This document shows positions 4,982 to 53,150 of a stretch of DNA of 64,000 nt, one piece after another. The stretch spans positions 50,974 to 114,973 of the forward strand of contig JAMOWA010000040.1 of NCBI GenBank assembly GCA_027061805.1. Direction: 5' to 3'. The stretch comes from Thermoanaerobaculia bacterium. GTDB lineage: Bacteria > Acidobacteriota > Thermoanaerobaculia > Thermoanaerobaculales > Sulfomarinibacteraceae. The translations under genes and the position numbers were made by a program. Position 1 is the stretch's first letter; every line of letters begins with the position of its first letter. The notes beneath the pieces were generated by a model. That model ran no database searches. It was not told the DNA's origin and saw only the letters and a program-made list of their open reading frames with translations.

Positions 4982-4999
4982 TGTTACGGGTGCGTAACT
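4982..4999 (+). promoter_or_regulatory. Distal activator-type site TGTTAC-N6-GTAACT
   Basis: Read directly as tgttac gggtgc gtaact. Its centre lies 93 bp upstream of the proximal palindrome. Confidence 0.5.
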
Positions 5000-5073: not shown

Positions 5074-5093
5074 ATGTTACTGATCAGTAACAT
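5074..5093 (+). promoter_or_regulatory. Perfect 20-bp palindrome ATGTTACTGATCAGTAACAT (candidate bEBP upstream activating sequence)
   Basis: Perfect reverse-complement symmetry checked by hand. The core is TGTTAC-N6-GTAACA, centred about 96 bp upstream of the -24 GG at 5179-5180. Confidence 0.65.
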
Positions 5094-5177: not shown

Positions 5178-5193
5178 TGGCATGGGCGTTGCA
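5178..5193 (+). promoter_or_regulatory. Sigma-54 (-24/-12) promoter of the dsr unit
   Basis: TGGCAT-GGGCG-TTGCA has the canonical GG-N10-GC spacing and matches the TGGCAC-N5-TTGCW consensus. Confidence 0.65.
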
Positions 5194-5206: not shown

Positions 5207-5797
5207 ATGGCGACGGCACCGCGGTCTCCGACGTTTGGCGGGCTTCTCGGGAAGCACCGGGCCGCCCTTCTGGCCTGCTGGAGGGAGGCGGCCTTGGAGG
5301 TCTACCCCGACGAGACGCGCCGGTTCCTCCTGCGGGAGAAGGACCGCTTCCAGAACCCCGTGGGTGCCGTCCTCGCGAGCACGCTGGAGGATCTCCTGGA
5401 CGGGCTCCTCGATGGCGCGCCCGGCGGGGAGCTCGCGGCGAGGTGCGACGGCCTGATCCGGGTCCGGGCGGTCCAGGACCTGGGCGCGGCCCGTTCTGTC
5501 GGCTTCGTCTTCGCCCTGCGGGAGGCTGCGCGGAGTCTCCTGGCCCACGAGGACGACGGTGCGGCGGTCCTCCTGGAGCTCCAGGAGCTGGACCGCCGCC
5601 TGGATCGCCTCGCACTGGTGCTCTTCGAGCGCTACGTGGCCTGTCGCGACGAGATGGCCGGAATCCGTGTGCGGGAGGGGCAGCGTCGGGTGGCGGTGCT
5701 CCTGAGACGGCTGGAACGGCTGGAGTCCGGAGGGGCGGAGACCCCCCCTCCGGTGGGGAGTCCTGAGCTTCGAGACAAGGGAGGTTGCAACCCATGA
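5207..5797 (+). CDS. RsbRD_N-like helical domain protein, first gene of the dsr unit
   Basis: WREAALEVYPDETRRFLLREKDRFQNPVG resembles the RsbRD N-terminal domain family (DRFxNPVG) as I recall it. ATG 5207 is the only in-frame ATG downstream of the sigma-54 promoter (GTG 5204 also in frame). The stop overlaps the dsrM ATG (ATGA). Confidence 0.55.
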   Translation: MATAPRSPTFGGLLGKHRAALLACWREAALEVYPDETRRFLLREKDRFQNPVGAVLASTLEDLLDGLLDGAPGGELAARCDGLIRVRAVQDLGAARSVGFVFALREAARSLLAHEDDGAAVLLELQELDRRLDRLALVLFERYVACRDEMAGIRVREGQRRVAVLLRRLERLESGGAETPPPVGSPELRDKGGCNP

Positions 5798-6786
5798 GAG
5801 CCTGGTCGGCGTTGGCAATCGTGGTGGTGCTGCTGGGGGTGGCGTGGGTCGCCTCCGGGACGGGAGGGGGGCAGGCCGTCATCGGGACCGTGATCCCGTA
5901 CCTCGCGGTGGCCCTGTTCCTCGCAGGGATGGTGGCCCGGGTGATCGGATGGGCCCGCTCGCCCGTCCCGTTCCGGATCACAACCACCTGCGGACAGCAG
6001 CGGTCGCTGCCGTGGATCCCCTCGGCGACCCTGGACAACCCCCACACAGGCTGGGGGGCTGTCCGCAGGATGGTGCTGGAGGTGCTGCTGTTCCGGTCGC
6101 TCTTCCGGAACACCCGCAGCGAGCTCAGGCCCACCGAGAGGCTGGTGTACGAGTCGGACAAGGTTCTCTGGGTGGCGGCCCTGGCCTTCCACTGGAGCTT
6201 CCTGGTGATCCTGCTCCGGCACCTGAGGTTCTTCCTGGAGCCGATTCCCCGCCTGGTCCCGCTGCTGGAGACCGTCGATGGCTTCTTCCAGCTGACGGTT
6301 CCCACCCTCTTCCTCACGGATGCCCTCATCGTGGCGGCGCTCCTCTATCTCCTGGGCCGGAGGGTCCTCAACGTCCAGCTGCGCTACCTCTCGCTCGCCG
6401 CCGACTACTTTCCCCTCTTCGTCCTGCTGACCATCGCCACCACGGGGATCCTCATGCGGTACGTCACGAAGGTGGACCTGGTGGGTGCCAAGGAGCTGGC
6501 CATGGGGCTGGTGACCTTCCACCCGGTGGTCCCCCAGGGGATCGGGACCCTCTTCTTCGTGCACCTGTTCTTCGTGAGCGTGCTGTTCGCCTACTTTCCT
6601 TTCTCCAAGCTGGTCCACATGGGGGGCGTCTTCCTGAGCCCCACGCGGAACCTGGCCAACAACAACCGCGCCCGGCGCCACGTCAGCCCCTGGAACCCCG
6701 AGGTGAAGGTCCACACCTACGAGCAGTGGGAAGAGGAGTTCCGGGACAAGCTGGTGGCGGCCGGAATCCCCCTGGACAAGGAGTGA
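5794..6786 (+). CDS. dsrM: DsrM, NarI-like dihaem b membrane subunit
   Basis: Polytopic membrane protein of DsrM size sitting first in an M-K-J-O-P gene order. AAGGGAGG lies 9 nt before ATG 5794, so the ORF-track TTG 5785 is less likely. Confidence 0.85.
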   Translation: MRAWSALAIVVVLLGVAWVASGTGGGQAVIGTVIPYLAVALFLAGMVARVIGWARSPVPFRITTTCGQQRSLPWIPSATLDNPHTGWGAVRRMVLEVLLFRSLFRNTRSELRPTERLVYESDKVLWVAALAFHWSFLVILLRHLRFFLEPIPRLVPLLETVDGFFQLTVPTLFLTDALIVAALLYLLGRRVLNVQLRYLSLAADYFPLFVLLTIATTGILMRYVTKVDLVGAKELAMGLVTFHPVVPQGIGTLFFVHLFFVSVLFAYFPFSKLVHMGGVFLSPTRNLANNNRARRHVSPWNPEVKVHTYEQWEEEFRDKLVAAGIPLDKE

Positions 6787-6789
6787 GCG

Positions 6790-8433
6790 ATGGCGGAGAA
6801 GAGCCCGCAGGAACTGCTGCAGATCGACTACCGCCCGCCCCGGCGGGACTGGATGGACCCCTCCATCGACTTCGAGGCCCGCCGGGGAACCTGGTCGTAC
6901 CCCGCCGCTCCGAAGAACCTGGAGTACCTGGGGTTCCCCAACCCGCGGGAGTGGTCGCCCACGGACGAGGACTGGAAGCTGCCCGACAACTGGCAGGAGA
7001 TCATCCACCAGGGGCTGAAGGACCGGCTGGAGAGGTTCCGCTCCCTGAAGGTGTTCATGGACATCTGCGTCCGGTGCGGGGCGTGCGCCGACAAGTGCCA
7101 CTTCTTCATCGGTTCGGGTGATCCCAAGAACATGCCGGTGCTCCGGGCGGAGCTGCTGCGCTCCATCTACCGCAGGGACTTTACCACCACGGGGAAGATC
7201 CTGGGACGGCTGGCCGGGGGGAGGGAGCTCACGGCCGAGGTCCTCAAGGAGTGGTACTACTACTTCTACCAGTGCACCGAGTGCCGCCGCTGCTCGGTGT
7301 TCTGCCCCTACGGGATCGACACGGCGGAGATCACCATGATCGCCCGGGAGCTCCTCAACCTGGTGGGGCTCAACATCAACTGGGTGATGGAGCCGGTGGC
7401 CAACTGCGACCGCACGGGGAACCACCTGGGCATCCAGCCCCACACGTTCAAGGACAACATCGAGTTCCTCTGCGACGAGCTGGCCGACATCACCGGGATC
7501 AAGATCAGCCCCTCCATCAACCGCAAGGGCGCCGAGGTCCTGTTCATCGTGCCCTCGGCCGACTACTTCGCGGACCCCGGCATCTTCACCTTCATGGGGT
7601 ACCTCCTGCTCTTCGAGCACATCGGCCTGGACTACACCCTGAGCGCCTACGCCTCGGAAGGCGGCAACTTCGGGCTCTTCACCTCCCACGAGACCATCAA
7701 GCGGCTCAACTACAAGATGTACGCCGAGGCGAAGAGGCTGGGGGTCAGGTGGATCCTGGGCGGGGAGTGCGGCCACATGTGGCGGGTTGTCCACCAGTAC
7801 ATGGACACGCTCAACGGGCCGGCGGACTTCCTCGAGGTGCCCCGGTCGCCCGTCACCGGGACCGTGTTCGAGAACGCCGCCTCCACGAAGATGACCCACA
7901 TCTGCGAGTTCACGGCCGACCTCATCGCCAACGGCAAGCTCAGGCTCGATCCCTCGCGCAACGACCACCGCCGGGTGACCTTCCACGATTCCTGCAATCC
8001 CGCCCGGGCGATGGGGATCCTGGAGGAGCCCCGCCACATCCTCAGGACGGTGTGCAACAACTTCTTCGAGATGCCGGACAACACCATCCGCGAGCAGACA
8101 TTCTGCTGCGGTGGCGGGGCGGGGCTGGGCAACGACGAGAACATGGAGATGCGGCTGCGGGGAGGCCTTCCCCGGGCCAACGCCGTGAAGTTCGTCCACG
8201 AACGGCATGGCGTGAACCTGCTGACCTGCATCTGTGCCATCGACAGGGCCACCCTGCCCCCGCTCGTGGAGTACTGGGTCCCCGGCGTGGAGGTCTCCGG
8301 GGTCCACGAGCTGGTGGGCAACGCCCTGGTGATGGATGGGGAGACCCGCCGGACCACGGACCTGAGGGGTGAGCCGCTCGAGGGGGTTGCGGATGAACCC
8401 TCTCCGGAGGCGGAGGAGGCGAGCCATGTATGA
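6790..8433 (+). CDS. dsrK: DsrK, HdrD-like CCG-domain Fe-S catalytic subunit
   Basis: Ferredoxin-type motifs CVRCGACADKC and CTECRRCSVFCP are present, plus a C-terminal CCG signature FCCGGGAG. Length is about 547 aa. Confidence 0.9.
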   Translation: MAEKSPQELLQIDYRPPRRDWMDPSIDFEARRGTWSYPAAPKNLEYLGFPNPREWSPTDEDWKLPDNWQEIIHQGLKDRLERFRSLKVFMDICVRCGACADKCHFFIGSGDPKNMPVLRAELLRSIYRRDFTTTGKILGRLAGGRELTAEVLKEWYYYFYQCTECRRCSVFCPYGIDTAEITMIARELLNLVGLNINWVMEPVANCDRTGNHLGIQPHTFKDNIEFLCDELADITGIKISPSINRKGAEVLFIVPSADYFADPGIFTFMGYLLLFEHIGLDYTLSAYASEGGNFGLFTSHETIKRLNYKMYAEAKRLGVRWILGGECGHMWRVVHQYMDTLNGPADFLEVPRSPVTGTVFENAASTKMTHICEFTADLIANGKLRLDPSRNDHRRVTFHDSCNPARAMGILEEPRHILRTVCNNFFEMPDNTIREQTFCCGGGAGLGNDENMEMRLRGGLPRANAVKFVHERHGVNLLTCICAIDRATLPPLVEYWVPGVEVSGVHELVGNALVMDGETRRTTDLRGEPLEGVADEPSPEAEEASHV

Positions 8434-8839
8434 CGGAGGGAAGATCGTCGCCGGCCTCGTGGTGTTCCTCGTCCTGGTGACGGTGCCCGTCTGGCTGAAC
8501 GCCCTGGCGGGCGGGACGCCCCGGGCACCGGAGCTCGAGCTGCCCCGCGACGAGAGCCGGTGCGTGGAGCCCGCTGCGGTGATGCGGGCCACCCACATGG
8601 AGCTGCTCGACACCTGGCGGGACAGCGTGGTGCGTTCCGACGATCGCTTCTTCACCCTCGAGGACGGCCGGAGGGTGGAACGCAGCCTGAGCCGGACCTG
8701 CCTGGGGTGCCACGACAGGAAGGATGCCTTTTGCGACCGCTGCCACGACTACCTGGCGGTCTCGCCCTACTGCTGGGATTGCCACGTGATCCCCGAGGGC
8801 GGGACGGCCCTGGCGGCGGCGGGAGGGGGTGTGCGATGA
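8426..8839 (+). CDS. dsrJ: DsrJ, trihaem periplasmic cytochrome c
   Basis: N-terminal anchor KIVAGLVVFLVLVTVPVWL and three CxxCH motifs (CLGCH, CDRCH, CWDCH). ATG 8426 overlaps the dsrK end by 8 nt. Confidence 0.85.
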   Translation: MYDGGKIVAGLVVFLVLVTVPVWLNALAGGTPRAPELELPRDESRCVEPAAVMRATHMELLDTWRDSVVRSDDRFFTLEDGRRVERSLSRTCLGCHDRKDAFCDRCHDYLAVSPYCWDCHVIPEGGTALAAAGGGVR

Positions 8840-9609
8840 CGGTGGACCGGAGAACGTTCCTCAAGATCGCGGGCCTCGGAGCGCTGGGGACCACGGGGGT
8901 GTACTCGCTGCCCGTGCTGGGATCGCCGGAGAGCGGTCCGGGGGGGCACGGGGTGCCGGCCCCGGGTGGGACGCGGTGGGGCATGGTGATCGACCTGGCG
9001 GCGTGCCGCCACGACGAGGGGTGCCGGGACTGCATCGAGGTCTGCGGCAGGGTCCACAACGTCCCCCACCACGACGATCCCCGCCACGAGATCAAGTGGA
9101 TCTGGAAGGTGCCCTACCCCGAGGCCTTCCCCATGCAGCAGCACGAGTACCAGGAGCCGGCGCTGCTGGGGATGGCCGTCCCGGTGATGTGCAACCACTG
9201 CGACAACCCCCCCTGTGTGAGGGTCTGCCCCACACAGGCCACGTGGAAGCGGTCCGACGGGGTCGTCATGATGGACTGGCACCGCTGCATCGGCTGCCGC
9301 TACTGCATGGCGGCCTGCCCCTACGGCTCCCGGAGCTTCAACTGGGTGGAGCCCCGGGAGGCGCTGGAACACCAGGACCCCGGGTTCCCCACGCGGACCC
9401 GTGGCGTGGTGGAGAAGTGCAACTTCTGCGAGGAACGGCTGGCGAAGAACGAGCTTCCGGCCTGTGTGACCGCCTGCCCGCACGGGGCGCTGACCTTCGG
9501 CAACCTGGCGGACCCCGACTCGCCCGTGCGGCGGATCCTTGCGGGGCGCATGGCGATCCGCCGGAAGCCCTCCCTGGGGACCCACCCCGAAATCTTCTAC
9601 CTGGTGTGA
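8836..9609 (+). CDS. dsrO: DsrO, Tat-exported 4Fe-4S ferredoxin subunit
   Basis: Tat signal MTVDRRTFLKIAGLGALG. Cluster motifs CNHCDNPPCVRVCP, CIGCRYCMAACP and CNFCEERL..PACVTACP. ATGA overlap with the dsrJ stop. Confidence 0.9.
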   Translation: MTVDRRTFLKIAGLGALGTTGVYSLPVLGSPESGPGGHGVPAPGGTRWGMVIDLAACRHDEGCRDCIEVCGRVHNVPHHDDPRHEIKWIWKVPYPEAFPMQQHEYQEPALLGMAVPVMCNHCDNPPCVRVCPTQATWKRSDGVVMMDWHRCIGCRYCMAACPYGSRSFNWVEPREALEHQDPGFPTRTRGVVEKCNFCEERLAKNELPACVTACPHGALTFGNLADPDSPVRRILAGRMAIRRKPSLGTHPEIFYLV

Positions 9610-9616
9610 GGTGACC

Positions 9617-10774
9617 ATGCTGGAGAACGCCTTCCACGGAGACCGCCGGTACTGGACCTGGATCGGGTTCCTCCTCGTCCTCATGGGCGTCGGGGCCTTC
9701 TTCTACCTCCAGCAGCTGAGGTACGGCCTGGGAATCACCGGCATGAGCCGGGACGTGAGCTGGGGGTTCTACATCGCGCAGTTCACCTTCCTGGTGGGGA
9801 TCGCCGCCTCGGCCGTGATGGTGGTGCTGCCCTACTACCTCCACGACGTGAAGGTCTTCGGGCGGATCACGGTGCTCGGAGAGTTCATCGCCGTGTCGGC
9901 CGTCACCATGTGCCTGGCCTTCATCATCATCGACCTGGGCCAGCCCCAGCGGGCGCTCAACATGGTGCTCCACCCGAGTCCCCGGTCCATCCTCTTCTGG
10001 GACATGATCGTGCTCAACGGCTACCTGGTGCTCAACGTGATCATCACGAGGGTCACGCTGGACGCCGAGCGCAACGGCGAGGCGCCCCCGCGCTGGATCA
10101 GGCCGGTGATCATCCTGTCCATCCCCTGGGCCATCAGCATCCATACCGTGACGGCGTTCATCTACTCGGGCCTCGCGGCGCGGCCCTTCTGGATGACCGC
10201 CATCCTGGCGCCCCGATTCCTGGCCTCGGCCTTCTCCTCGGGTCCCGCCCTGCTGATCCTGCTCTGCCTGATCCTGATCCGCTTCACGAAGTTCGACCCG
10301 GGCTGGGAGGCCATCCAGAAGCTGGCCCTGGTGGTCACCTACGCGGTGCTGGCCAACATCTTCTTCGTGCTCATGGAGCTGTTCACGGCCCTGTACAGCG
10401 ACATTCCGGAACACCTCCTCCACTTCAGGTACCTCTACCTCGGCCTCGACGGGCACCACGAGCTGGTGCCCTGGATGTGGACGTCGGCCTTCCTGGTGGT
10501 GGCCTCGGCGGTCATCCTGGTGACCCCGAGGCTCCGGAGGCAGAAACGCTGGCTGGTGGCGGCCTGCATCGGCGTTGTGGTGGCCATGTGGATCGAGAAG
10601 GGCCTGGGGATGGTGGTCACGGGCTTCGTACCCTCGCCGCTCGAGACGGTGACCCGCTACGTTCCGACCTTCCCCGAGGTGGCCATCACCGTGTCCGTGT
10701 ACGCCCTGGGAGCCCTCATGGTGACGGTCTTCTATCGGATCGCCCTGTCCGTCCGCGGGGAGCTGGCGGGATAG
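9617..10774 (+). CDS. dsrP: DsrP, NrfD/PsrC-like integral membrane quinone-interacting subunit
   Basis: About 385-aa polytopic membrane protein directly after dsrO. Start set at ATG 9617 (MLENAFHGDRRYWTWIGFLLVL). Confidence 0.85.
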   Translation: MLENAFHGDRRYWTWIGFLLVLMGVGAFFYLQQLRYGLGITGMSRDVSWGFYIAQFTFLVGIAASAVMVVLPYYLHDVKVFGRITVLGEFIAVSAVTMCLAFIIIDLGQPQRALNMVLHPSPRSILFWDMIVLNGYLVLNVIITRVTLDAERNGEAPPRWIRPVIILSIPWAISIHTVTAFIYSGLAARPFWMTAILAPRFLASAFSSGPALLILLCLILIRFTKFDPGWEAIQKLALVVTYAVLANIFFVLMELFTALYSDIPEHLLHFRYLYLGLDGHHELVPWMWTSAFLVVASAVILVTPRLRRQKRWLVAACIGVVVAMWIEKGLGMVVTGFVPSPLETVTRYVPTFPEVAITVSVYALGALMVTVFYRIALSVRGELAG

Positions 10775-10783
10775 GGAGGCGGG

Positions 10784-12451
10784 GTGGGCGCCGCGGCGCG
10801 CTCCGTTGTGGTGGTCGGCGCCTCGGCGGCGGGGCTCCGGTGCGCGTGCCGGCTGGCGAGGCTCCAGCCCTCCTGGGACGTCCTGGTGGTGGAGGAGCGG
10901 GAGGTCTTCTCGTACGGGGCCTGCGGCCTGCCCTACGTGCTCTCGGGGGACATCGGCGAGGCCGAGGAGGTCCGGAGGACCGCCTGGGGCGTGGTCCGCG
11001 ACGCGGAGTTCTTCGACGCCTGCAAGGGCGTGAGGGTACTCCCGGCGACGCGCGCCGTGGAGGTCCGTGACGGGGTGCTCGCCGTGGAGGGCCCGTCGGG
11101 CCGTGAGGAGCTCCCCTGGGACGAGCTCGTCCTGGCCACCGGCGCCCGGGCCCGCCGCCTTCCCGGCCAGCCCGACCATCCCGCGGTCCGCACCTTCCAC
11201 ACCTGGGACGACGTGGAGCCGCTCAGGGAGGGGCTGATCCGGGGCCGCATCGGGTCCGTGGCCGTCGTGGGCGCCGGGCCCATCGGGTGTGAGCTGGCGG
11301 AGGCGTTCGTGGCCATGTGGGGGGCGGAGGTGACGCTGCTGGAGGCCATGGCCCACCCCCTCCCCGGCCTGCTGGGTCCCGAGGCCGCCGCGGTGGCCAC
11401 CGGTGTCCTCAAGAGCGAGGGTGTCGCGGTGCGTTGCGGTGCCCCCGTGGAGGCCATCGAGCCCGCCGGGGAGGGCGTGGTGGTGACCGCGGGGGGAGAA
11501 CGGCATGCGGTGGACACCGTGGTGGTGGCCGTCGGGGTGGAGCCCGCCGTGGAGCTGGCCCGCACCGCCGGCGCGGCCCTGGGACCCACCGGCGCCATCG
11601 CGGTGGACGAGCGTCTCGCCACCAGCGTGCCCCACGTCTGGGCGGCCGGCGACTGCATCGAGTGCCGCCACGCCGTCACGGACGGCCCGGTCCACCTCCC
11701 CCTGGGGTCGCTGGCGAACCGCCAGGGGAGGATCCTCGCCAACGTCCTGGCGGGGCGGGACGACCGGTTCGGACCCGTGGCGGGTTCGGTGGCGGTGAAG
11801 GTCTTCGACCTGGAGGTGGCGGCGGTGGGCTGCTCCCTGGAGCGGTCCCTGGCCCACGGTCTCGATGCCGCGGCCGTCTGGATGACCACGGACGCTGCGG
11901 CCCACTACTGGCCGGAGTCCTCGAACCTCCACCTCTGCCTGGTGTACGAGAGGGGCACGGGGCGCGTGCTGGGCCTCCAGGCGGTGGGGCGCCGTGGTGC
12001 GGTCCGGGCCGTGGACGTGGCGGCCCAGCTGGTGGCCCGCGGGGGGACCCTCGGGGAGCTGGAGCACCTGGAGCATGCCTACGCGCCGCCCTTCGCACCG
12101 GCCCTGGACCCCGTGGCTGTGGCGGCCTCCGTGGCGCTCAACGCCTGCGAGGGCGTGACCTGCACCGGACCGCTGGAGCCACCCCCCGGCCGGGTCCTCG
12201 ATGTCCGGCTTCCCGAGGAGATCGGGGAACGCAGGACCCCGTTCCGCGAGGTGCTGGAGCTCCCCCTGCACGAGCTCCGCCGGGCAGAGGTGCCCGGCGG
12301 TCCCGGGGAGCTTCTGGTGGTGTGCGAGCGCGGGACCCGCTCGGCGGAGGCCGTGAGGCTCCTGGCAGCCCGCGGGGTGACCGCGCGCTACCTGGGGGGC
12401 GGCCTCCTGTGGCGGTGGGCTGCCGGGAACGGACAGGGGGGGGCGTCGTGA
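10784..12451 (+). CDS. CoA-disulfide reductase / NADH-dependent persulfide reductase-like flavoprotein with C-terminal rhodanese domain
   Basis: FAD fold VVVVGASAAGLRCA, redox Cys in SYGACGLPY, second Rossmann motif VAVVGAGPIGCE and AAGDC. The C-terminal rhodanese loop is VVCERGTRS (CxxxxR[ST]). GTG start lies after GGGAGG. Confidence 0.8.
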   Translation: MGAAARSVVVVGASAAGLRCACRLARLQPSWDVLVVEEREVFSYGACGLPYVLSGDIGEAEEVRRTAWGVVRDAEFFDACKGVRVLPATRAVEVRDGVLAVEGPSGREELPWDELVLATGARARRLPGQPDHPAVRTFHTWDDVEPLREGLIRGRIGSVAVVGAGPIGCELAEAFVAMWGAEVTLLEAMAHPLPGLLGPEAAAVATGVLKSEGVAVRCGAPVEAIEPAGEGVVVTAGGERHAVDTVVVAVGVEPAVELARTAGAALGPTGAIAVDERLATSVPHVWAAGDCIECRHAVTDGPVHLPLGSLANRQGRILANVLAGRDDRFGPVAGSVAVKVFDLEVAAVGCSLERSLAHGLDAAAVWMTTDAAAHYWPESSNLHLCLVYERGTGRVLGLQAVGRRGAVRAVDVAAQLVARGGTLGELEHLEHAYAPPFAPALDPVAVAASVALNACEGVTCTGPLEPPPGRVLDVRLPEEIGERRTPFREVLELPLHELRRAEVPGGPGELLVVCERGTRSAEAVRLLAARGVTARYLGGGLLWRWAAGNGQGGAS

Positions 12452-13540: not shown

Positions 13541-15316
13541 ATGTTTCCGGTGATGTTGCAGGTGGCTGGGCGATCCTGCCTGGTGGTGGGTGGGGGGGGT
13601 GTCGCCCTGCGCAAGGCCCAGGCCCTGGTGGCGGAGGGGGCGAAGGTGACGGTGGTGGCGCCCGAGGTGGTGGCGCCCCTGGAGGAGATGGCCGCACGGG
13701 GGGAGCTCGAGATCGAGCGGCGGCCCTACAGGCCGGGAGAGGCGGCGGGCCACCGGCTCGTCCTGGCGGCCACCGATGACCGCGAGGTGAACCGGCGCGT
13801 CTTCGACGACGGCGAGGCCGCGGGGGTCTGGGTCAACGTGGCGGACGACCCGGAGCTCTGCGCCTTCCACCTGCCGGGGCGGGTCAGGAGGGGGAGCCTG
13901 GAGATCGACATCTCCTCCGGAGGGAACGCCCCCTTCGCCGTGCGGCGGCTCAGGAGCCTCTTCGAGGCCCGCCTCGAACCCGAGTGGAGCGAGTGGATGG
14001 AGGCCGCGGCGCGGTTCCGCCGGATGGTGCTGGCCAGTGGCCTGGACCGGGCCGCCCAGGAGGCGGCCTTCGATCGCTTCATGGAGCGGACGGTGGACGG
14101 CGAGACCCTGCGGATCCGGGTGCCCGGCGATGAGGAGATGGCCTCGTGGATCGGATCGGGACCCAGCCGGGAGGGCGCCGCACCCACGGGTTCACCGGAA
14201 CCCTGTGGCCCGGAACGCGACGGGAAGGGGTTCGTCACGCTGGTGGGGGCGGGCCCCGGGTGCCCGGGGCTGCTGACGGTCCGGGGGAGGCGGCGTCTCA
14301 TGGAGGCCGACGCGGTGGTGTTCGACCGGCTGGCGACCGGTGCGCTGCCCACGGACCTTCCTCCCGAGACCGAGCTGCACCCCGTGGGCAAGACCGCCGG
14401 ACGCCACCCCGTGCCCCAGGAGGAGATCGTCGCCCTGCTGCTCCGGCTGGCCCGCGAGGGCAGGAAGGTCGTCCGGCTCAAGGGCGGGGATCCCTACATC
14501 TTCGGCAGGGGCGCGGAGGAGGCCGCGGTCCTGGCCTCGGCCGGGGTGCCCTTCGAGGTGGTCCCGGGGGTCACCTCGGGGATCGGTGGCCTGGCGTGGG
14601 CCGGGATTCCCGCCACCAACCGGCGGGAGGCGGTCCGGGTGACCCTCCTGACCGCCCATGAGTGCAGCAAGCCGGAGGGTTCCCAGGTGCGCTGGGACCT
14701 GCTGGCCAGGGACCCGGCCGCCACCCTCGTGGGGTACATGGGCCTCACGGTGCTGCCCGACGTGGTCGCCCGGCTCCTGGAGGAGGGAATGGACCCGGCG
14801 ACGCCGGCGGCCGTGGTGGAGAGGGCGGCCACCTCGGCCCAGCGGAGGGTCGTCGCCACGCTCTCCGGGCTTCCAGAGGCGGTGGCCGCGGCGGGCCTGA
14901 GGCCCCCGGCGCTCTTCGTGATCGGCCCCACGGTTCGCCACGCGGAGGAGCTGGACTGGTTCGCCCGGCGGCCCCTGGCAGGGCAGCGCCTGGCGGTGAT
15001 GGCCCGTCACAGGGAGCTCGTGGAGGCCCTGGAGGACGGAGGCGCCGAGGTGGTGGTCCTGCCGTTGCCGGTGACGCCCGCCGCGCGGCTCGTGGCGGCG
15101 TGCCGGCCCCTGACGGGGTGTGTCCTGCTGGACCCTGCCGAGGTGGAGGTGATGGACGAGGAACGTCAGGCCGGGGCCTGGGGGGACGATCCTGTGGCAT
15201 GGTGTGTGGGAGAGCCGGCCGCACAGCGGGCGCGGGACCTGGGGTGGCCCCGGGTGTGGTCGCTTTCCGTGGAGGTGGGCTGTGAACGCCTGGTGGACGA
15301 GATCGCCGCTCGGTAG
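13541..15316 (+). CDS. cysG: Siroheme synthase-like fusion: precorrin-2 dehydrogenase/ferrochelatase + uroporphyrinogen-III C-methyltransferase + partial HemD-like tail
   Basis: N-terminus CLVVGGGGVALRKAQALVAEGAKVTVVAP (SirC/Met8-type Rossmann fold). Middle region VTLVGAGPGCPGLLTVRG..VVRLKGGDPYIFGRG..VVPGVTS (SUMT). The last ~110 aa resemble half of a uroporphyrinogen-III synthase. Confidence 0.8.
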   Translation: MFPVMLQVAGRSCLVVGGGGVALRKAQALVAEGAKVTVVAPEVVAPLEEMAARGELEIERRPYRPGEAAGHRLVLAATDDREVNRRVFDDGEAAGVWVNVADDPELCAFHLPGRVRRGSLEIDISSGGNAPFAVRRLRSLFEARLEPEWSEWMEAAARFRRMVLASGLDRAAQEAAFDRFMERTVDGETLRIRVPGDEEMASWIGSGPSREGAAPTGSPEPCGPERDGKGFVTLVGAGPGCPGLLTVRGRRRLMEADAVVFDRLATGALPTDLPPETELHPVGKTAGRHPVPQEEIVALLLRLAREGRKVVRLKGGDPYIFGRGAEEAAVLASAGVPFEVVPGVTSGIGGLAWAGIPATNRREAVRVTLLTAHECSKPEGSQVRWDLLARDPAATLVGYMGLTVLPDVVARLLEEGMDPATPAAVVERAATSAQRRVVATLSGLPEAVAAAGLRPPALFVIGPTVRHAEELDWFARRPLAGQRLAVMARHRELVEALEDGGAEVVVLPLPVTPAARLVAACRPLTGCVLLDPAEVEVMDEERQAGAWGDDPVAWCVGEPAAQRARDLGWPRVWSLSVEVGCERLVDEIAAR

Positions 15317-16220
15317 GGCCGTGCTGGGGGTGGTCCTGGTTCTTTCGGCCGGGATCGCTGCCGGTGGGATGCAGCGGGCCGGAGGGCCGGCTCCACGGGT
15401 CGAGCCGCTGCGCCTGGGGGTGGTCGGGTTCTACAACCCCAGGCTCATGTACCTGAAGTACCAGGAGCTGGTGGACTACCTGACGGAGACCACGGGGCGG
15501 AGGTGGGAGCTGGTCATCGGATCCAGCTACGAGGAGACCGTGGAGGGGCTGTGCTCGGGGACGCTGGACCTGGCGTACCTGGGTCCCTTCACCTACGTGC
15601 AGGCCCACGCCCGGTGCGGTGCCCTGCCGGTGGTGCGATTGCGGACACTGGGCCGGGAGACCTATCGGAGCCTCATGCTCGTGCGAACGGACAGCCCCAT
15701 CCGGGAGGTCTCGGACCTCGGGGGCAGGCGTTTCGGGTTCGGGTCTCCCCTCTCCACCTCCTCCCACCTGGTGCCGCGGGCGATCCTCATGGAGGCGGGC
15801 CTTGCTGCGGGCAAGGATGTGGAGTGCCGGTACTTCCGGCATCACGAACGGGCGGCCCGGGCCGTGCTCCTTGGCGAGGTGGAGGCCTGCGGCGTCCGTG
15901 ACATCGTGGGGGAGAAGTACGTGGGTCGGGGCCTGAGGGTGCTGGCGCGCTCGGATCCGATCCCGAACTTCCCGCTGGTGGTGGGACCGGGCGACGACGG
16001 CACCATCCGCCGGATGATCGTCCGGGCGCTGCTGGAGGTGCCGCAGAAGGAGCCGGCCGTCCGTGCGAGGATGGGGTGCTGGGACCGGGAGCTTGCCGGG
16101 GGGTTCCTGCCGGCAGCCGATGCCGACTACGACGGGGTGAGGGTCCTGGCCAGGCGGGTCTTCGGTCCCCGGGCGCTGCTGCTCGGGCCCGGGGCGCTGC
16201 AGTGCGGGGGAGGTGACTGA
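15282..16220 (+). CDS. PhnD-like (phosphonate-type) periplasmic solute-binding protein, sensor-associated
   Basis: LRLGVVGFYNPRLMYLKYQELVDYL..LDLAYLGPFTYV..GFGSPLSTSSHLVPR fits the type-2 PBP Phosphonate-bd family. Start is uncertain (GTG 15282 overlapping cysG, or GTG 15321). Confidence 0.7.
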   Translation: MNAWWTRSPLGRAVLGVVLVLSAGIAAGGMQRAGGPAPRVEPLRLGVVGFYNPRLMYLKYQELVDYLTETTGRRWELVIGSSYEETVEGLCSGTLDLAYLGPFTYVQAHARCGALPVVRLRTLGRETYRSLMLVRTDSPIREVSDLGGRRFGFGSPLSTSSHLVPRAILMEAGLAAGKDVECRYFRHHERAARAVLLGEVEACGVRDIVGEKYVGRGLRVLARSDPIPNFPLVVGPGDDGTIRRMIVRALLEVPQKEPAVRARMGCWDRELAGGFLPAADADYDGVRVLARRVFGPRALLLGPGALQCGGGD

Positions 16221-16223
16221 TCC

Positions 16224-17696
16224 ATGTTCCGGCTGGGCCTCCGGGCCAAGTTCTTCCTGTACTCCAACACCCTCATCGTGGTGACCATGATGCTGGTGAC
16301 CGCGCTGGCCCTGGTCCACGAGAAGAGGCTGCGGTACGAGGCCATCGAGAAGAGGGGCCTCTCGCTGACGGAGGCACTGGCCATTCCCATCACCGACGCG
16401 CTGCTCTACGAGGAGATGGGCCTCGTGGAGGAGAGCGGGCTCATCGAGAACTACATCGAGGAGATCCTGGGGCGCAACCGGGACCTCATGCGGTACGTGA
16501 TCGTGACCGATCCTCAGGGGATCGTGACCCACACCAACCGGTGGGAGCTGCTCGGCAAGCGGTTCGACCGGGCCGTGGGACGGGAGGCCATCGGCAGGGA
16601 GCCCATCGTCGAGGCGCGTGTCACGGAGGACGGGGAAAGGGTCCTGGAGGTGCGGGCACCCCTGGCCATCTCAACCCGGTTCTGGGGCTCCATCACCGTG
16701 GGGTACTCGCTCCGGGCCATCGACCGGGAGATCCGGGAGCTGGCGCGGAAGGCGGCCATCATCGCCCTCATCCTCATGCTGGGAAACTCCATCATGACCG
16801 CCCTCTACGTGGAGACGCTCATCCGCCCGATCCTGGGGCTCTACCGCACCATGCGCCGGGCGGCCCGTGGCGACCTCACCGTGCGGGCGGACGACCGGAG
16901 GGCGGACGAGGTGGGAGGGCTGGCCCGGGCGTTCAACCACATGATGGACGAGCTGGAGGAGGCCAGGGAGCGGGAGAAGGCCCAGCAGGCCCAGCTGGCC
17001 CACACCGAGAAGATGGCTGCCGTGGGCACCCTCGCCGCCGGCGTGGCGCACGAGGTGAACAACCCGCTGGCGGGGATCCTCGGTTGCATCGAGAACCTGC
17101 GGGCCCATCCCGACGACGAGGAGATGCGGTACCGGTACCTGGACCTCATCGCAGACGGTGTGAAGCGGATCGAACGGACGGTCTCGAACCTGCTGGACTT
17201 CTCCAGGCCCCGTCCCATGCAGCCGGTTCCCACGTCGATCAACCACAATCTCCGGCATGTCATGGAGCTCACGGAGTACCAGGTGAGGAAGGCGGGGGTG
17301 GAGGTCCGGCTTCACCTCGACCCGTCCGAACCGCTGGTGCTGGCCGACCACTTCCAGATGGAGCAGCTGTTCCTGAACCTGGTGCTCAACGCCCTCCAGG
17401 CCATGCCCGACGGCGGTGAGCTGACCCTGAACACATCCCGCCGGGACGGGCAGGTTGTGATCGAGGTCCGGGACACCGGGGAGGGCATTCCACCGGAGGT
17501 CCTCGAGAGGATCTTCGATCCATTCTTCACCACCCGCGGGGTCGGGGAGGGGACCGGCCTGGGACTCACGGTGAGTGACACCATCGTCCGGTCACACCGC
17601 GGGACCATCGAGGTGGAGAGCACCGTGGGCCGGGGGACGGTGGTCCGTGTGACCCTTCCCGAGCTCTCGGATGCCGACGACGAAGGGGGTGCGTGA
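16224..17696 (+). CDS. Sensor histidine kinase (2 TM, periplasmic domain, HAMP, HisKA, HATPase)
   Basis: TM segments TLIVVTMMLVTALALV and AAIIALILMLGNSIMTALYV, H-box AAGVAHEVNNPL, N/G boxes LNLVLNALQA and DTGEGI..GTGLGL. Confidence 0.9.
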   Translation: MFRLGLRAKFFLYSNTLIVVTMMLVTALALVHEKRLRYEAIEKRGLSLTEALAIPITDALLYEEMGLVEESGLIENYIEEILGRNRDLMRYVIVTDPQGIVTHTNRWELLGKRFDRAVGREAIGREPIVEARVTEDGERVLEVRAPLAISTRFWGSITVGYSLRAIDREIRELARKAAIIALILMLGNSIMTALYVETLIRPILGLYRTMRRAARGDLTVRADDRRADEVGGLARAFNHMMDELEEAREREKAQQAQLAHTEKMAAVGTLAAGVAHEVNNPLAGILGCIENLRAHPDDEEMRYRYLDLIADGVKRIERTVSNLLDFSRPRPMQPVPTSINHNLRHVMELTEYQVRKAGVEVRLHLDPSEPLVLADHFQMEQLFLNLVLNALQAMPDGGELTLNTSRRDGQVVIEVRDTGEGIPPEVLERIFDPFFTTRGVGEGTGLGLTVSDTIVRSHRGTIEVESTVGRGTVVRVTLPELSDADDEGGA

Positions 17697-19084
17697 TGGC
17701 TCTGCTCTGTGGCAACAGACTTCTCATCGTGGAGGACGAGCCCCTTCTGCGCATCACGATGGCGGACGCCCTGAGGAAGGAGGGGTGGGCGGTGGACGTG
17801 GCGGAGGACGGCGTCAAGGGCAACGCGCTCTTCGAGCGCTCGTTGCACGATGTGGTCCTCACCGACCTGGTGATGCCCCGGATGGACGGCATGGCGCTGC
17901 TCAAGAGGATCAAGGCGCTGCAGCCCGACACCACCGTGGTGATCATCACCGCCCACGGCTCCGTGGATCGTGCGGTGGAGGCCATGAGGGAGGGTGCGGC
18001 GGACTTCATCTCGAAACCGTTCTCCATGGCCCAGCTCCTGGTCCGTCTCAACAACGTGTGCTCGGTCCGGATGCTCAGGGAGCAGAACGTCCGCCTCCAG
18101 GAGCAGCTGGAGGAGCGGTTCTCCTTCTCCAACATCATCGGCAAGAGCAAGAAGATGTTCGAGGTCTTCGAGCTCATCAAGGTGGTGGCCGATTCCGAGG
18201 CCAGCGTCCTGGTCCTGGGGGAGAGTGGTACCGGCAAGGAGCTGGTGGCCTCGGCCATCCACTACAACTCACCCCGGAGGACCAAGCCGTACATCCGGGT
18301 GAGCTGTGCGTCGCTGCCCGAGTCGCTCATCGAGTCGGAGCTCTTCGGGTACGAGCGCGGGGCGTTCACGGGAGCCAGCGAGCGGCGCATCGGGCGGTTC
18401 GAGGCCGCCAGCGGCGGGACCCTCTTCCTGGACGAGATCGGTGAGCTCCCCCTCTCCTTCCAGGTCAAGCTGCTCCGGGTCCTCCAGGAGCGCCAGATCG
18501 AGCGCCTGGGTTCCAACCGTCCCATCGACATCGACGTCCGGTTCGTCGCGGCGTCGTTGCGGCCCCTGGAGGAGGAGATCGCCGAGAGCCGTTTCCGTGA
18601 GGACCTCTACTTCAGGATCAACACCGTGACCATCCAGCTCCCGCCCCTCCGCGAGCGGCGGGAGGACATCCCACTGATGGCGCAGTCGTTTCTCCAGGAG
18701 TTCGCCCAGGAGAGGGGCAAGGAGCTGGAGGGGTTCTCCGACGAGGTGCTCGAACGATTCGACAGTTACTCCTGGCCCGGGAACGTGCGGGAGCTGCGCA
18801 ACGTGGTGGAACGGGCGGTGCTCTTCTCACGGGGACCGCTGGTGACGGCGGAGGCCCTCCCCGAGAACCTGATGGCCTCCGCAGGTCCCGTGGTCCGGGA
18901 GGCCGAGCCCGTCCGGAAGGTGGTGAAGCTCCAGGAGGCGGTGGAGAGGGCGGAGGTGGAGGCGATCCGCGCGGCCCTCTCGGCCACCGGTGGACGCCGG
19001 TCCGACGCTGCCGATCTCCTGGGGATCAGCCGGAAGACCCTGTGGGAGAAGATGCGGAACTACGGGATCCAGCACGATGGGTAG
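17696..19084 (+). CDS. NtrC-family sigma-54-dependent response regulator (REC + AAA+ + Fis-type HTH)
   Basis: REC domain with [13 protein letters not shown], Walker A GESGTGKE, intact [15 protein letters not shown], and C-terminal [24 protein letters not shown]. The ATG overlaps the kinase stop. Confidence 0.9.
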
Positions 19085-19204
19085 GTCTGCCGGACATCGT
19101 TCTCCGGGGCTCTCGCCGTGGGTGGGAATCGTGATCTGGAAAGGCGCCGGGGCAGGCCCATCGTTACCGGGAGGGTACGTGGGGACCTCCGTTGGCATGA
19201 CGCC

Positions 19205-19222
19205 CGTTACACGGGTGTTACG
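19205..19222 (+). promoter_or_regulatory. UAS-like site CGTTAC-N6-GTTACG
   Basis: Centred 95 bp upstream of the -24 GG at 19308-19309. A weaker CGTTAC-N6-GGTACG site at 19162-19179 lies 43 bp further upstream. Confidence 0.45.
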
Positions 19223-19306
19223 AGCTGTACGGGGAGGCGGTGACGGTGGAACCTCCAATTGCCTGTCCTCTCAACAGGATGCACGTGACGACGTCTTCCC
19301 GTGTTC

Positions 19307-19322
19307 TGGCACACACCTTGCT
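19307..19322 (+). promoter_or_regulatory. Sigma-54 (-24/-12) promoter
   Basis: TGGCAC-ACACC-TTGCT is a perfect core consensus, 223 bp downstream of the NtrC-type gene stop. Confidence 0.75.
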
Positions 19323-19332
19323 TTTCCCGGTG

Positions 19333-19565
19333 TCGAGAGCGGACACGAGCCACCGTCCCCCCGGGGGATGGCGAGGCTCCAGGGAGGTGCAGGGGTCCGG
19401 AGTTGTCCGGGTTACGAGGGCCGGAACAACGATGGGCCGGGAATCAACGACGAACCAACCCCCCCCGGCGGGCACCGGGGTGACCTGGTGCCCGCCATAT
19501 CCCACTCCTCTCCCGATCCTCCCACAGGGGAGAACGCCGCGCTCCGTGCGCGGCGTCCTTTTGTG
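19333..19565 (+). ncRNA. Candidate sigma-54-dependent structured sRNA, or attenuating 5' leader of the 19649 gene
   Basis: Bounded by the sigma-54 promoter and an intrinsic terminator. It contains a perfect 10-bp stem GGCGGGCACC/GGTGCCCGCC (19467-19496). A CU-rich single-stranded stretch CCCACUCCUCUCCCGAUCCUCCCA (19501-19524) holds anti-SD-like CCUCC. No convincing RBS-preceded ORF. Confidence 0.45.
19534..19565 (+). terminator. Rho-independent terminator
   Basis: ACGCCGCGC-tccgt-GCGCGGCGT is a 9-bp GC stem followed by CCTTTTGTG. Confidence 0.65.
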
Positions 19566-19648
19566 CGTGGTCCCGGGATGGATGGGAGGAGGGCATGGTT
19601 CCGGTCGAGCGTGACGGGACGAGCGGGAGAGCTCGGGGGAGGACGATC

Positions 19649-20251
19649 ATGAGAGCAACGTTCCGGAGAGTGAGCCTGGTGGTGGTGATGATGGTGGCCG
19701 GCATGGCCGGAGCGGGACAGCCCGCGCCGCGAGAGACCGGCACGGTGACGCGGGAGGCCGTGCGGGAGCGGCTGGCCGACATCCTGGCGGGAGAGGATTA
19801 CGACAGGGTGGAGTTCGCCGTCAGCACCTTCGACCAGGCCATGGAATGGATCTACCTGGCCGTGGATACCTACCTGGACAGCGCCATCCCGAAGCTCGGT
19901 GGCCCGGGTCCGGCCGGGGAGTACGGTGCCGAGATCCTGGGTGGCCTCGAGGACCACAAGGTCCGGTGGGCGGATGACAACGGCCTGGACCTGGTTGGAG
20001 AACGGACGCTCCTGGTGAGCTCACCGGAGGAGGCCCGTCAGCTGGGGGAGCTCCTGCTCCGGACCGCCCTCCTGATCCGCGAGGCCGGGGTGGGGCACGG
20101 CGTGGCCATCCGGAGCGCGGCCCGCAAGGTCTTCGAGACCATGCTGCCGGTGGAGGGCACGGGGCAGTCCCTGGTGACCCAGTACGTGGTCAGGTTGCGG
20201 ATGATGACGGAGTCCGACAGGAAGGCCCTCCTCGAGCTGCTCCGGGACTGA
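19649..20251 (+). CDS. Hypothetical secreted protein
   Basis: ATG 19649 follows GGGGGAGGA. Signal peptide MRATFRRVSLVVVMMVAGMAGAG. No family recognised. Confidence 0.6.
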   Translation: MRATFRRVSLVVVMMVAGMAGAGQPAPRETGTVTREAVRERLADILAGEDYDRVEFAVSTFDQAMEWIYLAVDTYLDSAIPKLGGPGPAGEYGAEILGGLEDHKVRWADDNGLDLVGERTLLVSSPEEARQLGELLLRTALLIREAGVGHGVAIRSAARKVFETMLPVEGTGQSLVTQYVVRLRMMTESDRKALLELLRD

Positions 20252-50928: not shown

Positions 50929-51837
50929 TCAACCCCTCAGGTTCACGACACGGGTCAGATCCATGTCAAGGAACACGTCGATGATCTCCTCGTCCGGGGC
51001 CACCTCGGGATAGCACCGGACGAGCTCGGAAAGGTAGCGGCGGGCGCGGAAGCGGTCCCGCTGCCGGACGGCCACCTCGGCCAGGAGGAACAGGGAGTTC
51101 TTCACCACGAGGCGGTCGTCGGTCTCCAGTGCCAGCGTCAGGCCACGTTCGCCGTGGCTCCGCGCCGGCTCGAGCCTGCTGTCGAGCAGGTACCCGTAGC
51201 AGAGGTCCTGCAGGGTCTGGGGAAGGAGGTGGGTGGCGTCCCACGCCTCCAGCTCCCGGCGGGCCGCCTCGCAGAGGACGATGCCGTCGGGTATCCGGTC
51301 GGTGCACAGGTGGACGTACCCGAGGTTGTCCCGGATCTGTGCGGCCATGGTCCTGCCGTGCGGGTCGCTCCGCAGGTCGAAGGTCTCGAGCGCCCGCCTG
51401 TAGGCCTCCTCGGCCTCGTCGAAGCGGGACAGCAGCACGGCGATGTTGCCCTCGAGGTTGGAGGTGGCCGCCCGGTGGACCGGGTCGTCCAGCTCGCCGG
51501 CGTACCGTTCGGCCCGCCGGGCCCAGGAGGCGGCCTCCTCGAGGCTGGATTCCATGTACGCCGCCATGGCCGTGGTGTAGGAGGCCATCCACCGGACCCT
51601 CGGGGTCCGGCTCCGCATCAGGATCTGCTTGAGATGCGGGACGCACCCGGCACCCCGCTCCAGGTCCACCAGGATGGCGGCGCGGTTGCAGTAGGCCAGG
51701 TCGGCCGTCTCGGCGTCGCCCTCCGAGCGGGCCCTTCGCTCGGCCTGTTCGAAGAGCGCGAGGGCGGTGGAGACGTCTCCGGAGGCGAAGGCCTCCTCGG
51801 CCCGGCGGCGGATCTCCTCGTACCAGCCCACGGTCAC
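50929..51837 (-). CDS. TPR-like helical repeat protein
   Basis: The 302-aa all-helical product has repeated A..A...Y..AL patterns. Its start overlaps the XRE gene stop. Confidence 0.6.
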   Translation of the reverse strand: MTVGWYEEIRRRAEEAFASGDVSTALALFEQAERRARSEGDAETADLAYCNRAAILVDLERGAGCVPHLKQILMRSRTPRVRWMASYTTAMAAYMESSLEEAASWARRAERYAGELDDPVHRAATSNLEGNIAVLLSRFDEAEEAYRRALETFDLRSDPHGRTMAAQIRDNLGYVHLCTDRIPDGIVLCEAARRELEAWDATHLLPQTLQDLCYGYLLDSRLEPARSHGERGLTLALETDDRLVVKNSLFLLAEVAVRQRDRFRARRYLSELVRCYPEVAPDEEIIDVFLDMDLTRVVNLRG

Positions 51838-52322: not shown

Positions 52323-53150
52323 ATGGCATTTCAGCAATCGGGTCAACAGGCGTGGGACACGGGGCTGGCTGGTGAGCTCCGGCGGCACCGGTTCCTCCTG
52401 TTCCAGCTGGCCCGCCGCTCCTTCGCGGCCCGCCATGCGGAGAACCTCCTGGGATGGTGGTGGTCGCTGATCTCCACGGCGTTCCAGGCCCTGCTCTTCT
52501 GGGCCATCTTCTCGAGGGTGATTGGCATCAGGATTGCAGAGCCGCGCGGCGTGGGATTTGCCGTGTACCTGATGACGGGGCTCGTGCCCTTCGCCGCGCT
52601 GCAGGATGCCCTGACGCGCTCCGCCACCGTGTTCAGGCGGCATGCGGCCATCGTCCAGAGGGTTCGCTTTCCCCTGGGTGTCCTGGTGACCGGGGATCTC
52701 CTGGGGACCCTCGCCTACCACGCCCTCCCCCTGGCGGCGGTGGGGATCTGGTGCCTCGCCGCCGGGCACCTGGAGCTCCCGGGAATGGGGGGGCTGGCCC
52801 TGGGGCTGGTCTTCCTGGCCGTCTGGACCCTGGGCCTGGGGCTGGCGCTCGCCGTGGTGGGGGCCCTGCTCCCGGACGTGGATCACGTGCTCTCCCTGGT
52901 GCTGCAGGCCGTGTTCTACGGTGCCCCCATCGTGTACCCGCTTTCCATGGTGGGCGAGGGGACACTCGGGACGGTGGTCCGGGCGAACCCGCTGACCGTC
53001 ATGGTGGAGCTCGTCCGGATGGGCCTCATCGGGGCCGCCGCCCCGGCCGCTGCTCCGGTCATCGCGGTGGCCGTGGGCGGGGTGGTCCTGGTGGTGGCCG
53101 GCACGGCTCTCCTGGGCCGGTACAGGTGGCGGATTCCCGACGTGGTGTGA
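52323..53150 (+). CDS. ABC-2-type polysaccharide/glycan exporter permease (Wzm/TagG/KpsM-like)
   Basis: ATG 52323 is in frame inside ORF 51852-53150. ELRRHRFLLFQLARRSFAARHAENLLGWWWSLI opening and six hydrophobic helices. No obvious RBS. Confidence 0.75.
   Translation: MAFQQSGQQAWDTGLAGELRRHRFLLFQLARRSFAARHAENLLGWWWSLISTAFQALLFWAIFSRVIGIRIAEPRGVGFAVYLMTGLVPFAALQDALTRSATVFRRHAAIVQRVRFPLGVLVTGDLLGTLAYHALPLAAVGIWCLAAGHLELPGMGGLALGLVFLAVWTLGLGLALAVVGALLPDVDHVLSLVLQAVFYGAPIVYPLSMVGEGTLGTVVRANPLTVMVELVRMGLIGAAAPAAAPVIAVAVGGVVLVVAGTALLGRYRWRIPDVV

Follow-up and report, generated by a model that had tools for sequence, protein, structure and literature searches.

The window analysed here, 64,000 nucleotides (nt) of contig JAMOWA010000040.1 from the Thermoanaerobaculia bacterium assembly GCA_027061805.1 (contig positions 50,974–114,973, forward strand), contains at positions 19307–19565 what we read as a gene in its own right, encoding a small non-coding RNA (sRNA) of a previously undescribed family, a reading to which we give a probability of roughly 0.7. 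The region follows a gene for an NtrC-type sigma-54 activator and is very probably a small regulatory RNA gene under a sigma-54 promoter, kept in 12 related uncultured Acidobacteriota (Thermoanaerobaculia). Twelve distinct copies were compared: that of the window and those of loci L001, L002, L003, L005, L006, L084, L093, L102, L104, L105, and L110. At the level of sequence, the element is characterized by its promoter, upstream sites, conservation, covarying RNA structure, the lack of an open reading frame (ORF), and independence of its orientation relative to the neighbouring genes. An initial annotation of the window had proposed a candidate sRNA with its own sigma-54 promoter beside its probable activator, and this proposal is now backed by the 12 relatives, by covariation in the stems, and by the negative outcome of the ORF and Rfam analyses. 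The region has the attributes of a sigma-54- and enhancer-binding-protein-dependent sRNA gene, namely a promoter, an upstream site, and a non-coding structured RNA with a terminator.

The promoter of the RNA (TGGCACacaccTTGCT) is present as annotated, TGGCAC-N5-TTGCT at 19307–19322, and lies far above chance, the perfect sigma-54 consensus occurring twice in the window against 0.04 occurrences expected. The sequence CGTTAC-N6-GTTACG that had been noticed upstream as resembling an activator site was found at 19205–19222, and its 16-base-pair (bp) core, GTTACACGGGTGTTAC, of the form GTNAC-N6-GTNAC, is centred 93 bp before the TGG of the promoter. A distal, imperfect site (GTTACCGGGAGGGTAC) is identical in the close relative L102, and in L104 12 of its 16 positions are identical and the 5' GTTACCG half is retained; the flanks have diverged in both, and the regulator may bind this site too. 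L005 likewise carries two upstream sites, at −130 and −90, the second site lying about 40 bp farther upstream in both the window and L005. Across the family, all 12 members have, 64–177 nt before the conserved RNA module, a promoter that departs from TGG[CT]A[CT]-N5-TTGC[AT] at no more than one position, and 10 of them have an exact GTNAC-N6-GTNAC whose centre lies 70–93 bp before the TGG of this promoter. The NtrC-type gene at 17693–19084 probably encodes the activator of this promoter. In L002, the interval between the activator gene and the RNA promoter (5370–5760) contains, by eye, tandem repeats of about 150 bp with many short GC palindromes (gggacctcgcgcccgggccg...), a run that is not present in the other loci.

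The predicted 234-nt transcript folds better than each of 200 dinucleotide shuffles (200/200; z = −3.2), and its parts are listed in Table 1. The perfect 10-bp stem that the initial annotation had described within 19467–19496 is present (GGCGGGCACC/GGTGCCCGCC, 19467–19476 with 19487–19496) and extends to 13 bp. The single-stranded C-run in front of it has six C columns that are invariant in the alignments of the family. The CU-rich unpaired stretch that had been placed at 19501–19524 was upheld in its first part, where a conserved single-stranded tract was found at 19499–19513, and had to be given up in its second, where the second CCUCC (19518–19522) is mostly paired, nearly all of it falling in the 5' arm of a conserved hairpin of small size at 19519–19532. 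The annotated 9-bp GC hairpin with a U-tract at 19534–19565 is also there (hairpin at 19534–19556, then CCTTTTGTG) and was independently reported by a terminator scan.

Table 1. Features of the RNA gene, its neighbours and its putative regulon (positions in the window).
Feature	Position	Strand	Remarks
Sigma-54 (−24/−12) promoter of the RNA, TGGCACacaccTTGCT	19307–19322	+	TGGCAC-ACACC-TTGCT; perfect consensus
Proximal upstream activator site (predicted), GTTACACGGGTGTTAC	19206–19221	+	GTNAC-N6-GTNAC; 16-bp core; centre −93 from TGG
Distal imperfect upstream activator site (putative), GTTACCGGGAGGGTAC	19163–19178	+	centre about 137 bp upstream of promoter TGG
Variable 5' part of predicted transcript	19333–19458	+	start near 19333 predicted from the promoter
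Single-stranded C-run	19459–19466	+	8 C in window
Stem-loop 1	19467–19496	+	13 bp in window
CU-rich single-stranded tract, candidate seed, AUCCCACUCCUCUCC	19499–19513	+	conserved
Hairpin 2, CUCCC-ACAG-GGGAG	19519–19532	+	present in all members
Intrinsic terminator	19534–19565	+	9-bp stem, 5-nt loop, then CCUUUUGUG; terminator scan, alignment
PhnD-like periplasmic binding protein gene	15204–16220	+	domain search, synteny
sCache_3_2/HAMP histidine kinase gene, probable sensor	16224–17696	+	domain search, synteny
NtrC-type sigma-54 activator gene	17693–19084	+	receiver, AAA+, Fis-type helix-turn-helix; Pfam
Signal-peptide protein gene (sec)	19649–20251	+	beside RNA in 12/12 loci
Porin-like outer-membrane protein gene	22463–21297	−	weak Porin_4 match; ends ...QWQYKF
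Porin promoter	22558–22543	−	perfect consensus
Upstream site of porin promoter, GTTACGGAACGGTAAT	22659–22644	−	one mismatch; centre −93 from TGG
Promoter of Dsr-like set, TGGCATgggcgTTGCA	5178–5193	+	
Palindromes upstream of Dsr-like promoter, GTTAC-N6-GTAAC	5076–5091, 4983–4998		perfect; centres −94, −187 from TGG
DsrMKJOP-like gene set	5207–12451	+	RsbRD_N, DsrM-like, DsrK-like, Fer4_11, NrfD, oxidoreductase

Comparison of the intergenic region with the orthologous loci by BLAST revealed that its conserved part comprises only the last ~115 nt. This 3' module of ~110 nt is made up of six or more consecutive C, a stem-loop of 13–14 bp, the tract (U)UCAUCCCACUCCUCUCC, a hairpin of 4–5 bp (CCCC/GGGG), and the terminator followed by a U-run. 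Between promoter and module, distant members share no alignable sequence and differ widely in length, and even within the close trio formed by the window, L102, and L104 this part diverges much faster than the module. The transcript length of ~230 nt that the initial annotation had put forward is particular to this lineage; the conserved part is limited to the 3' ~110 nt (19459–19568), and the relatives would have transcripts of ~150–265 nt, since their promoters lie 64–177 nt before the module. A covariance model built from five copies gave exactly one strong match per member locus, its matches in the first set of loci being those of the window, L001, L002, L003, L005, and L006. A pattern scan of metagenomes returned 20 loci with three real members, one of which (L100) duplicates L001, and the RNA family is rare; four further members were reached via homologues of the protein encoded by sec, the gene downstream of the RNA (Table 1). 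In L102 (4594–4623, minus strand) and L103 (2475–2504, minus strand), a GC hairpin like stem-loop 1 (17.6 bits, E = 0.005) sits between the porin gene and the next minus-strand gene, and it is probably a terminator-like hairpin only.

The covariation in relatives that had been suggested as a check was found in the stems of the 12-sequence alignment. Standard pairs are formed by 94.8% of cells, against 39–48% when the 3' partners are slid by 1–3 columns; both sides changed in eight pairs, with 38 double-change cells against 11.6 in column shuffles; and the covariation score was reached by none of 500 shuffles. Stem-loop 1 contributes six of its 14 aligned pairs changed on both sides. Its compensatory changes can be followed between GGCGGGCACC/GGTGCCCGCC in the window and GGCGGGTACC/GGTACCCGCC in L102, and among close relatives as CAC/GTG (window), TAC/GTA (L102), and AAC/GTT (L104). 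The closing pair of hairpin 2 also covaries, being CG in seven members and UA in five. In the terminator, the outermost pair covaries and the 7-bp core GCCGCGC/GCGCGGC (window 19535–19555) is invariant in all 12 members; an invariant terminator core and C-run next to a freely varying stem-loop 1 are unusual for a terminator. The CU tract AUCCCACUCCUCUCC (15 nt) is identical in nine of the 12 copies, whereas L104 differs from it at one position and L006 and L105 at four, and its CCUCUCC core is invariant in all 12, with variable stems on either side.

The initial annotation had found no ORF preceded by a ribosome-binding site, and in agreement with this no ORF is common to the family members. 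One frame is open across the module in several of them, reading ...SHSSP... in the window, L001, and L003, and high G+C favours long open frames; this would be the ground for taking the region as a small-protein gene, or as a conserved intergenic element (a terminator or a repeat) without a product of its own. However, there is no ATG-initiated ORF of at least 15 amino acids in L005 or L006, the ...SHSSP... frame of L002 and L084 is stopped just upstream with no later start, and substitutions in stem-loop 1 preserve pairing yet alter the hypothetical peptide. Between members, the distances separating the C-run from the tract and the tract from the terminator are unequal modulo 3, and together with the lack of a conserved ORF this argues against a small-protein gene. 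Each locus holds a single copy, which brings a promoter of its own, and this also speaks against an intergenic element without a product, so that either form of this explanation is highly improbable. Rfam gave nothing at gathering thresholds across the whole 64 kilobases. Under a permissive scan of the region, BjrC68 (RF02353) scored 22.0 bits against a threshold of 39 and 6C (RF01066) 18.3 bits against a threshold of 47, both sub-threshold matches resting on generic GC hairpins.

Although the sequence has a myxobacterial look, orthologues of the activator (71–93% identity) all lie in metagenome-assembled genomes (MAGs) that carry the label Thermoanaerobaculia or Acidobacteriota. In the orthologous MAG loci, the gene order siroheme synthase, binding protein, kinase, activator is kept, and the synteny of binding protein and kinase is conserved in L001–L011. 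Downstream of the RNA stand sec, a second gene without known function on the minus strand, and the porin-like gene (22463–21297). The sec product has no match in Pfam, NCBIfam, or PDB, and only 14 homologues among 5.8 billion proteins. The RNA is linked to sec in 12 of 12 loci and to the activator gene in 11 of 12. In seven loci (window, L001, L093, L002, L005, L102, and L104) the RNA lies between these two genes and is co-oriented with them; in the other five (L003, L006, L084, L105, and L110) the cassette of promoter and RNA is inverted and divergent from sec and, L084 excepted, convergent with the activator gene. In L084 (1146–2761), the RNA and sec are found away from the two-component genes, the neighbour on the terminator side being a convergent gene for an MgsA/RarA-type AAA+ ATPase. 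The promoter and a GTTAC...GTGAC site are retained there with no activator gene nearby, and regulation would therefore be in trans.

This arrangement bears on whether the element is a cis-acting leader or attenuator, in which case it would form the 5' untranslated region of sec (19649), with the terminator setting sigma-54-driven read-through. Its constant linkage to sec, directly upstream and co-oriented in seven loci, would fit such a role, as would the 83-nt gap between the terminator and 19649 in the window, which lacks any sigma-70-like site that could be found and whose best sigma-54-like site matches at 6 of 11 positions only; the short U-tract of the terminator points the same way. Against it, the leader would be expected always upstream of sec and co-oriented with it, and the cassette faces away from sec in five of the 12 loci; since it is inverted there, the cassette is not an obligatory leader of sec. 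Moreover, sec has its own sigma-54 promoter, matching at 10 of 11 positions, in L003, L084, and L005, and in L005 this promoter is found 150 nt past the terminator even though the RNA is upstream and co-oriented. Six relatives (L007–L009, L012, L107, and L108) have sec without the element. No conserved terminator/antiterminator pairing or ligand core was evident in the consensus fold, without a search dedicated to alternative pairings, and there was no match to a cis-regulatory Rfam family, riboswitches included. The alternative offered by the initial annotation was a riboswitch-like attenuator for the gene at 19649. The five inverted cassettes and the separate promoter of sec in L005 contradict such a role as an obligatory one, and we regard the leader explanation as a whole as improbable.

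With the element read as an independent sRNA gene, its variable 5' part, compensated stems, and CU-rich strand before the terminator would make up the usual signature of a base-pairing sRNA, with the seed in the 3' module. We infer that AUCCCACUCCUCUCC is this seed. Purine-rich ribosome-binding regions are likely targets, given the likeness of the tract to the anti-Shine-Dalgarno end of 16S rRNA. One duplex site recurred, at codons ~25–31 of the activator gene (window 17768–17797, AAGGAGGGGUGGG), which is complementary to the CU tract. The predicted duplex has −17.6 to −24.3 kcal/mol (about −22) in RNA-bearing loci against −11.1 to −18.9 (about −16) in RNA-less loci, a comparison confounded by phylogeny, and the site coincides with a conserved protein motif, for which reason it is treated as a lead only. 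The RNA may thus feed back on the mRNA of its own activator, as Qrr does on luxO. Intramolecular sequestration of the tract was also considered: a GGAG(G/A) tract occurs in all of the variable 5' regions and pairs with the CU tract in the folds of seven of eight members. The complementarity proved no better than that of dinucleotide shuffles of these G-rich 5' regions (mean z = +0.24) and, because this control failed, sequestration was dropped as evidence.

Several observations weigh against an independent gene whose RNA acts by base pairing. The terminator of the window has only four U residues, and because this tract is short and the best sigma-54-like site in the gap before sec matches at 6 of 11 positions, read-through into 19649 is possible; the RNA of the window may also form the 5' end of that mRNA. 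In the six relatives named above, activator and sec lie ~100–200 nt apart with no RNA between them, and the system as such can therefore do without it. The 12 members all belong to a single narrow clade, so that independent covariation events are few, and the alignment in which covariation was scored had been fitted to the covariance model. The CU tract is partly paired in full-length folds, with a mean unpaired probability of 0.2–0.7. No near match to its reverse complement occurs in the window, and duplex scans of the window and eight loci gave generic purine-rich matches only and no target. Finally, a simple seed model would give no account of the invariant terminator stem and C-run.

Alternatively, the RNA might bind or titrate a protein, as CrcZ or CsrB do, and use for this purpose the C-run, the CU tract, and the invariant stem of the terminator instead of pairing with mRNAs. 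The C-run, the CU tract (nine of 12 identical), and the 7-bp terminator core are near-invariant though not needed for internal pairing, no convincing mRNA target was found locally, and CrcZ, which is sigma-54-dependent and encoded beside cbrB, acts in this way. Each motif is, however, present in a single copy, unlike the repeated motifs of protein sponges, the tract mimics an anti-Shine-Dalgarno sequence in the classic layout for target pairing, and no candidate protein partner is known. Protein binding is an unlikely mode of action, for which the invariant C-run and terminator stem nevertheless leave some room.

Genes for sigma-54-dependent sRNAs beside that of their enhancer-binding activator are known from CrcZ/CbrB in Pseudomonas, Qrr/LuxO in Vibrio, and GlmY/GlrR in Enterobacteria. 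CrcZ and GlmY work through protein titration or mimicry, and the Qrr RNAs are ~100 nt long and Hfq-dependent, with a different conserved seed. CrcZ, Qrr, and GlmY share their layout with the RNA of the window, and none of them matches its sequence in the Rfam scan or is similar to it in structure. Exposed C- or CU-rich motifs occur in the UCCC-motif sRNAs RsaE/RoxS of Firmicutes and in the 6C RNA of Actinobacteria, where pairing with G-rich ribosome-binding sites has been proposed or demonstrated. The window RNA is like these in exposing such a motif and unlike them in that their motifs lie in hairpin loops and they are not sigma-54-dependent; on its region, the 6C model stays at the sub-threshold score given above.

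In layout, the closest precedents are NrsZ and CrcZ, both beyond the examples that the initial annotation had listed. NrsZ of Pseudomonas aeruginosa depends on NtrB/NtrC and RpoN, is encoded directly after ntrC, has a TGGCAC-N5-type RpoN promoter, and is a non-coding RNA of at least 226 nt that is processed to shorter active forms; CrcZ is mentioned in the same work as RpoN-dependent (PMC4253122). The RNA of the window resembles NrsZ in its intergenic position after an ntrC-type gene, promoter type, predicted length, and non-coding nature. The two have no similarity in sequence or structure: NrsZ has three repeated stem-loop modules with a ACAGGCAG loop motif, whereas the RNA of the window has one module and a single-stranded CU tract. 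They also belong to different phyla, and the signal probably differs, being nitrogen in NrsZ and possibly sulfur-related here. Pxr of Myxococcus xanthus is encoded in the order pxrK-pxrR-pxr, and an enhancer region lies upstream of its predicted sigma-54 promoter; it has three stem-loops, is processed from a long form to a short one that is active, and has a single-lineage distribution in co-evolution with its two-component genes (PMC5684412). The order of kinase, NtrC-like regulator, and sRNA is thus shared, as are the sigma-54 promoter and the enhancer region. The lineages differ, and the RNAs are set apart by description, with no Rfam model at threshold and the presence of Pxr in Rfam unconfirmed: the essential conserved sequence of Pxr lies partly inside its stem-loop 3, whereas the best-conserved block of the RNA of the window is single-stranded. 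Homology to Pxr was not detected and appears unlikely, the activator orthologues all being in Thermoanaerobaculia or Acidobacteriota MAGs and no close Myxococcota relative of the window activator being among the 80 best loci. The RNA family is new in a layout that is already known, and the finding extends an existing theme, since sigma-54-driven sRNAs beside an activator gene are known from several Proteobacteria and from Myxococcus. We found no literature on sigma-54-dependent sRNAs in Acidobacteria.

Further sigma-54 promoters in the window point to other genes under the same control. The pattern TGGYAY-N5-TTGCW has four matches in the window against 0.05 expected, three of which are preceded, at an equal distance of about 94 bp, by a site of the GTNAC-N6-GTNAC form; the exact form of this site occurs three times against 0.57 expected, each time upstream of a sigma-54 promoter. 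The three promoters preceded by a site of this form, that of the porin-like gene having one mismatch, are those of the RNA, of the porin-like gene, and of the DsrMKJOP-like gene set (Table 1). Sequence searches with the porin-like protein in Pfam, NCBIfam, and PDB gave only a weak Porin_4 match. Its promoter in the window is conserved in L001, L005, L007, and L009, and porin promoters with an upstream site of this form are also found in L005, L009, L010, L011, and L014; in L010, L011, and L014 the porin gene with such a promoter is directly 3' of the activator gene. The Dsr-like set codes for an RsbRD_N protein, DsrM-like (Nitrate_red_gam) and DsrK-like (Fer4/CCG) proteins, Fer4_11 and NrfD proteins, and a pyridine nucleotide-disulfide oxidoreductase. 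Its promoter ends only ~14 nt before the first ATG (5207), and the first gene of the operon is possibly near-leaderless. The fourth sigma-54 match, TGGCATcaggaTTGCA (52523–52538, plus strand), has no GTTAC-N6-GTRAC site nearby within one mismatch and is therefore presumably under another activator. Together, these sites suggest that the adjoining kinase/activator pair controls the RNA, the porin gene, and the Dsr-like operon as one regulon.

From these comparisons we infer a working model that extends from transcription and its dependence on the adjoining activator to seed function, processing, targets, and signal. The two-component pair formed by the sCache kinase and the NtrC-type activator would sense a signal together with the PhnD-like binding protein, and the activator would bind the GTNAC-N6-GTNAC sites ~90 bp (and ~135 bp) upstream and open the sigma-54 promoter. 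Transcription would run from near 19333 to the terminator near 19562–19565, yielding an RNA of ~230 nt whose functional core would be the 3' 110 nt with C-run, stem-loop 1, AUCCCACUCCUCUCC, hairpin 2, and terminator; the variable 5' part may be processed off, as in NrsZ, Pxr, and ArcZ. The CU tract would most probably pair in trans with purine-rich Shine-Dalgarno-like regions of target mRNAs, and the RNA would thus act at the post-transcriptional level within a regulon connected with dissimilatory sulfur metabolism. In its most specific form, in which the RNA is the riboregulatory arm of a sulfur-sensing sigma-54 regulon (Dsr-like operon, dedicated porin, and lineage-specific secreted protein) controlling dissimilatory sulfur respiration, possibly with feedback on the activator mRNA, this proposal is tentative and rather doubtful. 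If it holds, dsr-type metabolism would gain its first sRNA and, to our knowledge, Acidobacteriota their first defined family of functional sRNAs. The putative regulon would link a sensor/activator pair to dissimilatory sulfur metabolism, a biogeochemically interesting process. Regulatory RNAs of Acidobacteriota are, as far as we know, essentially uncharted, and a conserved sRNA with a promoter, an activator site, and a candidate seed would offer a handle on post-transcriptional control in this phylum.

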